Shown here in pieces: positions 24,711-25,314 of a stretch of 64,000 nt of DNA; the stretch's first letter is position 1, and each line of letters opens with the position of its first letter. This DNA comes from Escherichia coli (lineage in GTDB: Bacteria > Pseudomonadota > Gammaproteobacteria > Enterobacterales > Enterobacteriaceae). Location of the stretch: assembly GCF_003334405.1 (NCBI RefSeq), contig NZ_QOWM01000008.1; one strand, written 5' to 3'. The position numbers and the translations under genes are program-made. The notes beneath the pieces were generated by a model. The model saw nothing but the letters and a program-made list of their open reading frames with translations, made no database searches and had not been told where the DNA came from.

Positions 24711-25314
24711 TGTAGTAATCTCAAACTTATATTGGGGTGGTTTGTTGAGGTAATAATAGAGCCTTAAATTCAGTTGTGCAATAGCCAGGAATGTAAGGAA
24801 TTCAAAATTGTTCTTTATTTTGTGCCGCCAATAAATATCTTTTCATAAAATTAGCCAGAAAAGACGCGGCATATAGCCCTATTTACACCGATGATTTCGC
24901 AGCACGTGAGGTTAAAACTTCCTGATTCATGTCACATTTTATGGGGAGATTATCGTAGGCTGACGACCTTTCAGTCTTCTGTATTAGTTGTGTTTACGAG
25001 AATTCCCTATTAAGCGAATGATGAAAAGTAGAACAGTCGCAATAAGAGCATGGACTTAGTATTGCACTATCTCCTGGAGGTCAACAGAGGGCTATTACTT
25101 GCGCAACAGGTTAAAGATTGTGAATAGTTACCAGCAGTCATTTACCCGCTTATAACAAGCGAGGCAGTTGTAATGATAGCTCAGAAGGATTATGCAAGGC
25201 TTCGTAAGGGAGAACGCATATACCCACTTCTGTGCATACTGTTGAGCTGAAAAACTGACGAATTATGATAAACTCCAGCCAACTTTATTTCATATCATTG
25301 AGGGCCTGTGGCTG

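Follow-up and report, generated by a model that had tools for sequence, protein, structure and literature searches.

The AT-rich spacer between the divergent hns and tdk genes of Escherichia coli is an already known regulatory region

Introduction

In enteric bacteria, H-NS acts as master silencer of foreign genes and of stress genes. The region that sets the level of H-NS in the cell matters physiologically, as has already been documented. H-NS represses its own gene through AT-rich sequence lying upstream of it (PMC4390576, PMC7601328), and Fis and CspA activate the hns promoter, whereas ppGpp inhibits it (PMC4390576, PMC7601328, PMC4877382). Published work has assigned H-NS and Fis sites to upstream DNA out to -313 or -540; the pKK400 construct carried hns upstream DNA out to -313, and an hns reporter fragment extended from +12 to -540 (PMC4390576).

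The hns/tdk spacer is also one of the three most frequent targets of mutation as E. coli K-12 evolves fast growth on glucose minimal medium. Insertions of IS1, IS2 and IS5 have been found at -75, -111, -112, -116 and -258 from the hns ATG, and a SNP has been recorded at -22 (PMC4166923, PMC4786092, PMC9765567). IS insertions upstream of hns increase hns expression and growth rate (PMC5691611), and in plasmid-carrying MG1655 they strongly up-regulate H-NS (PMC9948715).

Here we describe this spacer in a 64-kb window, the whole stretch of E. coli DNA that was analysed. The spacer is a well-studied, already known regulatory region, in support of the interpretation in the initial annotation, and to the explanation of the spacer as a whole as a shared control region of hns and tdk we assign a probability of roughly 90%. 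The identity of the region, the mapping of the promoters, the pattern of conservation and the lack of an ORF or RNA come from the present analysis, while protein binding and regulatory effects are taken from the literature.

Results

Positions 24711-25314 of the window form a 604-bp spacer between hns (minus strand) and tdk (plus strand), which diverge from it.

24711-25314, no strand: entire spacer between the divergent genes hns and tdk (604 bp, 39.6% GC, identical to MG1655)

The start codons that bound it are at 24710 (minus strand) for hns and 25315 (plus strand) for tdk, and the corresponding ORFs encode 137 aa (24297-24710, minus strand) and 205 aa (25315-25932, plus strand). RefSeq labels the flanks hns and tdk, and leaves the spacer between them without annotation. 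The MG1655 counterpart, 1292923-1293526, is 100% identical to the spacer, as are those of other K-12 strains. These flanks and the identity to K-12 bear out the initial annotation, which had placed the stretch upstream of hns and tdk. Of 5426 complete E. coli genomes searched with megablast, 5423 carry the spacer, with identities of 95-100%. Records labelled plasmid, either F-prime-like captures or assembly mislabels, accounted for 13 of the 5,471 matching places in this search.

The stretch had also been described as long and AT-rich. Indeed, with 39.6% GC, where the window averages 49.7%, it ranks in the lowest 1.45% of all 604-bp windows in the 64 kb. However, some eight further loci of the window are at or below 40% GC, with a minimum of 35.1%, and the spacer is AT-rich only moderately, without being unique in the window. 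Beyond tdk, a frameshifted IS4-family transposase pseudogene (insZ/ISZ; 26214-27110) lies between tdk and adhE, and the local GC there reaches up to 65%.

We mapped the published elements of the hns promoter onto the window. Reported base identities in this promoter are C-13, T-12, A-11, A-8, T-7, C-4, C-3, C-1, A+2, C+3 and A+6, with a 17-bp spacer between the hexamers (PMC7601328). The transcription start was placed by matching them to the sequence, and all eleven identities together with the 17-bp spacer fit solely with a start at 24746 on the minus strand.

24711-24746, minus strand: hns 5' leader, 36 nt, with Shine-Dalgarno GAGA (from the inferred start; block more than 90% conserved)
24731-24735: CCAAT box in the hns leader (consensus scan)
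24758-24753, minus strand: hns sigma-70 -10 element, TATTAT (promoter scan and the bases of PMC7601328)
24781-24776, minus strand: hns sigma-70 -35 element, TTGCAC, with a 17-bp spacer to the -10 element
24790-24799, minus strand: footprinted H-NS site TCCTTACATT, -44 to -53 from the start (exact string match)

A simple promoter scan gave the same -10 element, TATTAT. The sequence TCCTTACATT is the footprinted H-NS site in hns given in Table 1 of Lang et al. 2007 (PMC2094087), and in the window it sits inside the conserved block GGAATGTAAGGAATTCAAAATT. The start, the -10 and -35 elements, the discriminator and the H-NS site thus all map base for base, which is the outcome of the comparison with mapped hns elements that had been proposed as a check. 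As these published elements map here and autorepression is established in the literature (PMC4390576, PMC7601328), the reading of the region as the H-NS-autoregulated hns promoter holds. The reporter fragment from +12 to -540 corresponds to window positions 24735-25286, nearly the whole spacer, the end of the pKK400 construct at -313 to position 25059, and the SNP at -22 from the ATG to position 24732.

A further published element lies upstream of the H-NS site.

24815-24837, no strand: AT-rich palindrome TTTATTT-N9-AATAAAT, the reverse complement of the published atttattggcggcacaaaataaa, with a CCAAT box at 24828-24832

The sequence atttattggcggcacaaaataaa is listed for tdk/hns in Table 2 of PMC3098098 as a weak predicted NagC-type operator. 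The left arm of the palindrome, TTATTT, is kept across genera.

Consensus scans for the Lang H-NS motif, Fis, IHF, DnaA, CRP and CCAAT recovered the published H-NS site, and the other counts were near background. The best match in the Fis scan, Fis sites being degenerate, was a single palindromic one of 14/15 positions at 25090-25104. Falconi et al. 1996 reportedly described seven Fis sites in the hns region, and these could not be located by the consensus scan, which gave no convincing Fis site. A CRP-like sequence, CCTGATTCATGTCACA, is found at 24921-24936 with two mismatches to TGTGA-N6-TCACA; its TCACA half is kept in Escherichia and Citrobacter, and the whole sequence lies at -182 from the hns start, an unusual place for CRP to act from.

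On the opposite side of the spacer, the conserved feature is a promoter element of tdk.

25265-25273, plus strand: tdk extended -10 element, TG-a-TAAACT (TGnTAnAnT conserved across Enterobacterales)
25280-25314, plus strand: putative tdk 5' leader, with Shine-Dalgarno GAGGG at 25301-25305 (read from the sequence; moderately conserved)

The pattern TGnTAnAnT is present in 26 of 28 diverse aligned Enterobacterales sequences, with no conservation of the -35 region that precedes it. As in extended -10 (TGn) sigma-70 promoters, the TG stands one base before the TAnAnT hexamer, and the tdk start would be expected at about 25279-25282. The simple promoter scan chose TTGAGC-16-TATGAT for tdk instead, 3 nt upstream.

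We next consider the phased A/T tracts and the curvature that the initial annotation had seen in the region. The spacer contains 18 AnTm tracts of at least 4 nt, a count equal to that expected from dinucleotide-preserving shuffles (17.4 ± 2.5), and 12 of the 18 fall in 24766-24940, the hns-proximal third. AA/TT periodicity has its maximum at 10.75 bp (z 3.5), although the maximum in the 10-11.5 bp band is matched by 5.7% of shuffles for the whole spacer and by 3% for 24811-25010. Curvature was predicted with the Bolshoy/Trifonov 1991 wedge model, under which a phased A6 control bends by about 41 degrees per 30 bp.

24799-24940, no strand: upstream segment rich in A/T tracts; the curvature model puts the apex of a bend at about 24850-24859 (-103 to -113 relative to the start)

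At arms of 30, 75 and 100 bp the predicted peak, at 24849-24859, ranks among the top 0.2-0.3% of positions in the window, and at 75- and 100-bp arms it is the fifth-ranked distinct curvature peak there, yet 11-23% of the spacer's own shuffles attain the same maximum, and the difference from shuffles is not significant. Minor peaks are predicted near 25075 and 25250. The measured bend of the hns promoter region reportedly lies at roughly -150, a position that differs from the predicted apex. The AT-richness and the clustering of A-tracts near hns are real, but the earlier description overstated the phasing: phasing and sequence-specific curvature are supported only marginally and are confined to about 24800-24940. 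The textbook description of the hns promoter as curved and phased thus appears weakly by computation.

It could be that the AT-richness is generic intergenic composition, so that the proximal 100-bp block would suffice alone and the remainder would be neutral filler. A tract count equal to, and a curvature within, the expectation from shuffles are in line with this, as is the existence of about eight equally AT-rich loci elsewhere in the window. We compared the spacer with its relatives, using a search with the H-NS protein and one genome per species, which yielded 80 Enterobacterales loci. Predicted curvature in the stretch 60-250 bp ahead of the hns ATG is above the 95th percentile of the background in 66% of them, against 31% of random control segments, an enrichment that speaks against filler but may largely mirror AT content. 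Among these orthologous loci the peak is not at a constant place, its distance from the hns ATG ranging from 115 to 250 bp.

Nearly all of the 80 loci have a divergent tdk upstream of hns, and the spacer between the two is always AT-rich, measuring 550-900 bp in Enterobacteriaceae and 300-750 bp elsewhere. The hns Shine-Dalgarno, the -10 element (ATAATAG) and the -35 element (TGCAATAG) are nearly invariant across Enterobacterales. Among 37 aligned Enterobacteriaceae spacers (36 besides that of E. coli), positions 24711-24810, comprising leader, core promoter and the block GGAATGTAAGGAATTCAAAATT with the H-NS site, are 83-97% identical to E. coli, or about 90% conserved across the family. Beyond 24810 identity drops to 17-55%, and apart from the promoter blocks and one island it is 17-50% across genera. 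What the conservation map adds is which 100 bp at the hns end are constrained. Six loci, from Citrobacter, Pseudocitrobacter and Kluyvera, have spacers of 874-909 bp; the additional DNA, about 300 bp, is all on the tdk side of the island.

The poor conservation between genera beyond 24810 also agrees with filler. Within Escherichia, however, the middle of the spacer (24830-25250, 420 bp) is 79-84% identical to E. albertii and the cryptic lineages, whereas the same comparisons give 63-73% identity at the 4-fold degenerate positions of galU, hns and tdk. This difference points to mild purifying selection on the middle, which is under some constraint.

The IS insertions bear on the same question. 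In the window the laboratory insertion sites are at 24785, 24821, 24822, 24826 and 24968.

24785-24826, no strand: hotspot of adaptive IS1 and IS2 insertions upstream of the hns core promoter (evolution experiments; the IS5 site is at 24968)

We also found an insertion of this type in nature. The egret isolate BE2-5 (NZ_CP032986.1) carries a 768-bp IS1 in the spacer with a 9-bp target duplication at 24803-24811, which places it at the edge of the conserved proximal block, about 10-23 bp to the hns side of the laboratory sites 24821-24826. A wild isolate thus shows the same type of IS1 insertion as laboratory evolution. The spacer is interrupted in at most about 1% of complete E. coli genomes. 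The IS1 hotspot at 24821-24826 falls within the palindrome at 24815-24837.

Since various IS types at various positions have the same effect, the simplest reading is that a negative upstream element becomes detached from an intact core promoter. Autorepression through upstream DNA fits the raised hns expression seen after an IS severs that DNA (PMC5691611, PMC9948715), and we infer that loss of autorepression is why the insertions raise hns expression. Alternatively, promoters reading outward from the IS elements could raise it. Insertions at 24803-24811 and at -111 to -116 spare the proximal block and yet alter hns expression and fitness, which is not what would be expected of filler, and neither are the published H-NS and Fis sites far upstream. 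Together with the constraint on the middle and the curvature of the orthologues, these results make neutral filler beyond the proximal block very unlikely.

It is also possible to suppose that the spacer conceals an unannotated small protein gene, small RNA or cis-regulatory RNA. The spacer is unusually long, its length is held at 550-900 bp across Enterobacteriaceae, and its middle is more conserved within Escherichia than 4-fold degenerate sites. Dub-seq, moreover, revealed an unexplained joint hns-tdk fitness effect on fosfomycin, and its authors speculate that intergenic DNA contributes (PMC6338753). We therefore looked for a conserved ORF and for a structured RNA, either of which the initial annotation had named as contradicting its reading; neither appeared in the ORF comparison, the Rfam scan or the folding analysis.

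The search for ORFs of at least 30 aa gave two alone, 24891-25013 (plus strand) and 25190-25282 (minus strand). Each is broken by stops or frameshifts in 3-4 of the 5 further Escherichia lineages compared (E. albertii and cryptic lineages), in agreement with the earlier statement that no ORF here has coding-like composition. Folding of the whole spacer gave no excess stability over shuffles (z -1.63 for the plus strand and +0.34 for the minus strand). A terminator-like hairpin was scored at 24957-24977 (plus strand) and is not kept in other genera. An Rfam scan of 24100-26300 at E ≤ 1 placed no family inside the spacer, and its two sub-threshold matches were in the galU-hns terminator area. 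With both ORFs interrupted, no RNA family or fold detected in these searches, cross-genus identity low outside the promoter blocks and the island, and the middle of the spacer unalignable from genus to genus, a hidden gene or RNA is largely refuted and extremely unlikely.

The convergent galU/hns spacer itself contains a strong, bidirectional-looking terminator hairpin, AAAATCCCGCC...GGCGGGATTTT, at 24172-24273 and 24249-24273. The sub-threshold Rfam match to frnS in this spacer scored 27 bits, against a gathering score of 60, and almost certainly is mere resemblance to a terminator.

Finally, one might take the spacer for an H-NS-silenced remnant, either of some mobile element or of AT-rich DNA that had been acquired horizontally, as its low GC, its attraction of IS elements and the IS4-family pseudogene insZ downstream of tdk might suggest. 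Conserved synteny refutes this view: nearly all of the 80 Enterobacterales species keep the divergent hns-tdk arrangement with its AT-rich spacer, and 5423/5426 E. coli genomes keep the spacer itself. A search for repeats in the spacer gave short pairs in numbers expected by chance; none, whether terminal or internal, exceeded 17 nt, and there were no mobile-element ends.

Within the shared control region, one segment far from both promoters stands out by its conservation between genera.

24958-24990, no strand: distal island with the consensus GGATAAATATCAACCTTTTGTATTAG, in E. coli in the partly degenerate form GGCTGACGACCTTTCAGTCTTCTGTATTAG (Enterobacteriaceae alignment)

This island of 26-33 bp is strongly conserved in Enterobacteriaceae other than Escherichia and is absent outside the family. 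It keeps a fixed distance of about 250 bp (239-263 bp) from the hns ATG, independently of its distance from the tdk ATG, which ranges over 266-635 bp as the tdk side grows by up to 300 bp. Among 35 Enterobacteriaceae other than Escherichia, 25 have a core that departs from the IHF consensus WATCAANNNNTTR at no more than one position, a fit reached by 6% of control slices. In some genera Fis-like or FNR-like patterns fit the island as well. In E. coli and other Escherichia there are three mismatches to the IHF core, the left half having degenerated so that CTTnnGTATTAG alone is left. The adaptive IS5 insertion at -258 (24968) falls inside the island. As judged by eye, an hns- or tdk-directed promoter within the island was rejected, the hexamers and spacings being inconsistent between genera.

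It is possible, if on balance rather doubtful, that the 26-bp island at 24963-24987 is a protein-binding site for hns regulation, acting as a long-range architectural element (e.g. a bend that loops distal DNA back). Our best guess for the protein that would bind it is IHF, with Fis or an FNR-family protein as alternatives. If the island is indeed a protein-binding site, it may be on its way to being lost in the Escherichia lineage. The island is the sole item of the spacer that looks unreported, and it may be new; it may also coincide with a published distal Fis site.

Buttiauxella and Cedecea have, in addition, an inverted repeat (CAACAACCCTGATAG...CAGGGGTTGTTG, about 40 bp) next to the island on its hns side, about 200-245 bp from the hns ATG. 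E. coli lacks this repeat, which may be REP-like or a hairpin resembling a terminator.

Discussion

Taken with the literature, the map shows how the shared control region most probably works. A sigma-70 promoter (-35 TTGCAC, -10 TATTAT, start at 24746) drives hns leftward via the 36-nt leader. H-NS binds TCCTTACATT (24790-24799), just upstream of the -35 element, and probably also the AT-rich, somewhat bent DNA at about 24800-24940, and would oligomerise from there, limiting the access of RNA polymerase. The segment 24799-24940, with its A/T tracts, is the presumed zone into which H-NS spreads from the proximal site. Fis in early exponential growth and CspA upon cold shock oppose H-NS, and ppGpp inhibits the hns promoter directly. 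A separate extended -10 promoter, TGaTAAACT (25265-25273), would drive tdk rightward. The approximately 400 bp between the two promoters appear to code for nothing and, mildly constrained by purifying selection, may serve to space the promoters and to offer AT-rich DNA for binding. An IS that severs the upstream DNA from the hns core promoter would relieve autorepression, leading to more H-NS and to faster growth in laboratory evolution.

The present analysis adds to earlier work an exact map, in window coordinates, of the published elements of hns. The region is the E. coli hns promoter, Phns, of Falconi et al. 1993/1996, Ueguchi et al. 1993 and La Teana et al. 1991; the locus is the same, the sequence is identical, and there is no difference between them. 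With the H-NS-repressed promoters of proU/proV, virF, bgl and rcsA it shares a motif-like nucleation site adjoining AT-rich flanks, the site in hns fitting tCGATAAATT at 8 of 10 positions. At bgl, an upstream IS insertion lifts repression (PMC9678765), as it probably does at hns. However, the gene repressed here is a highly expressed housekeeping gene under negative feedback rather than a foreign gene that is silenced. Unlike other H-NS-repressed promoters, moreover, the hns region is only modestly AT-rich (about 40% GC) and lacks a canonical high-affinity H-NS motif (PMC2094087).
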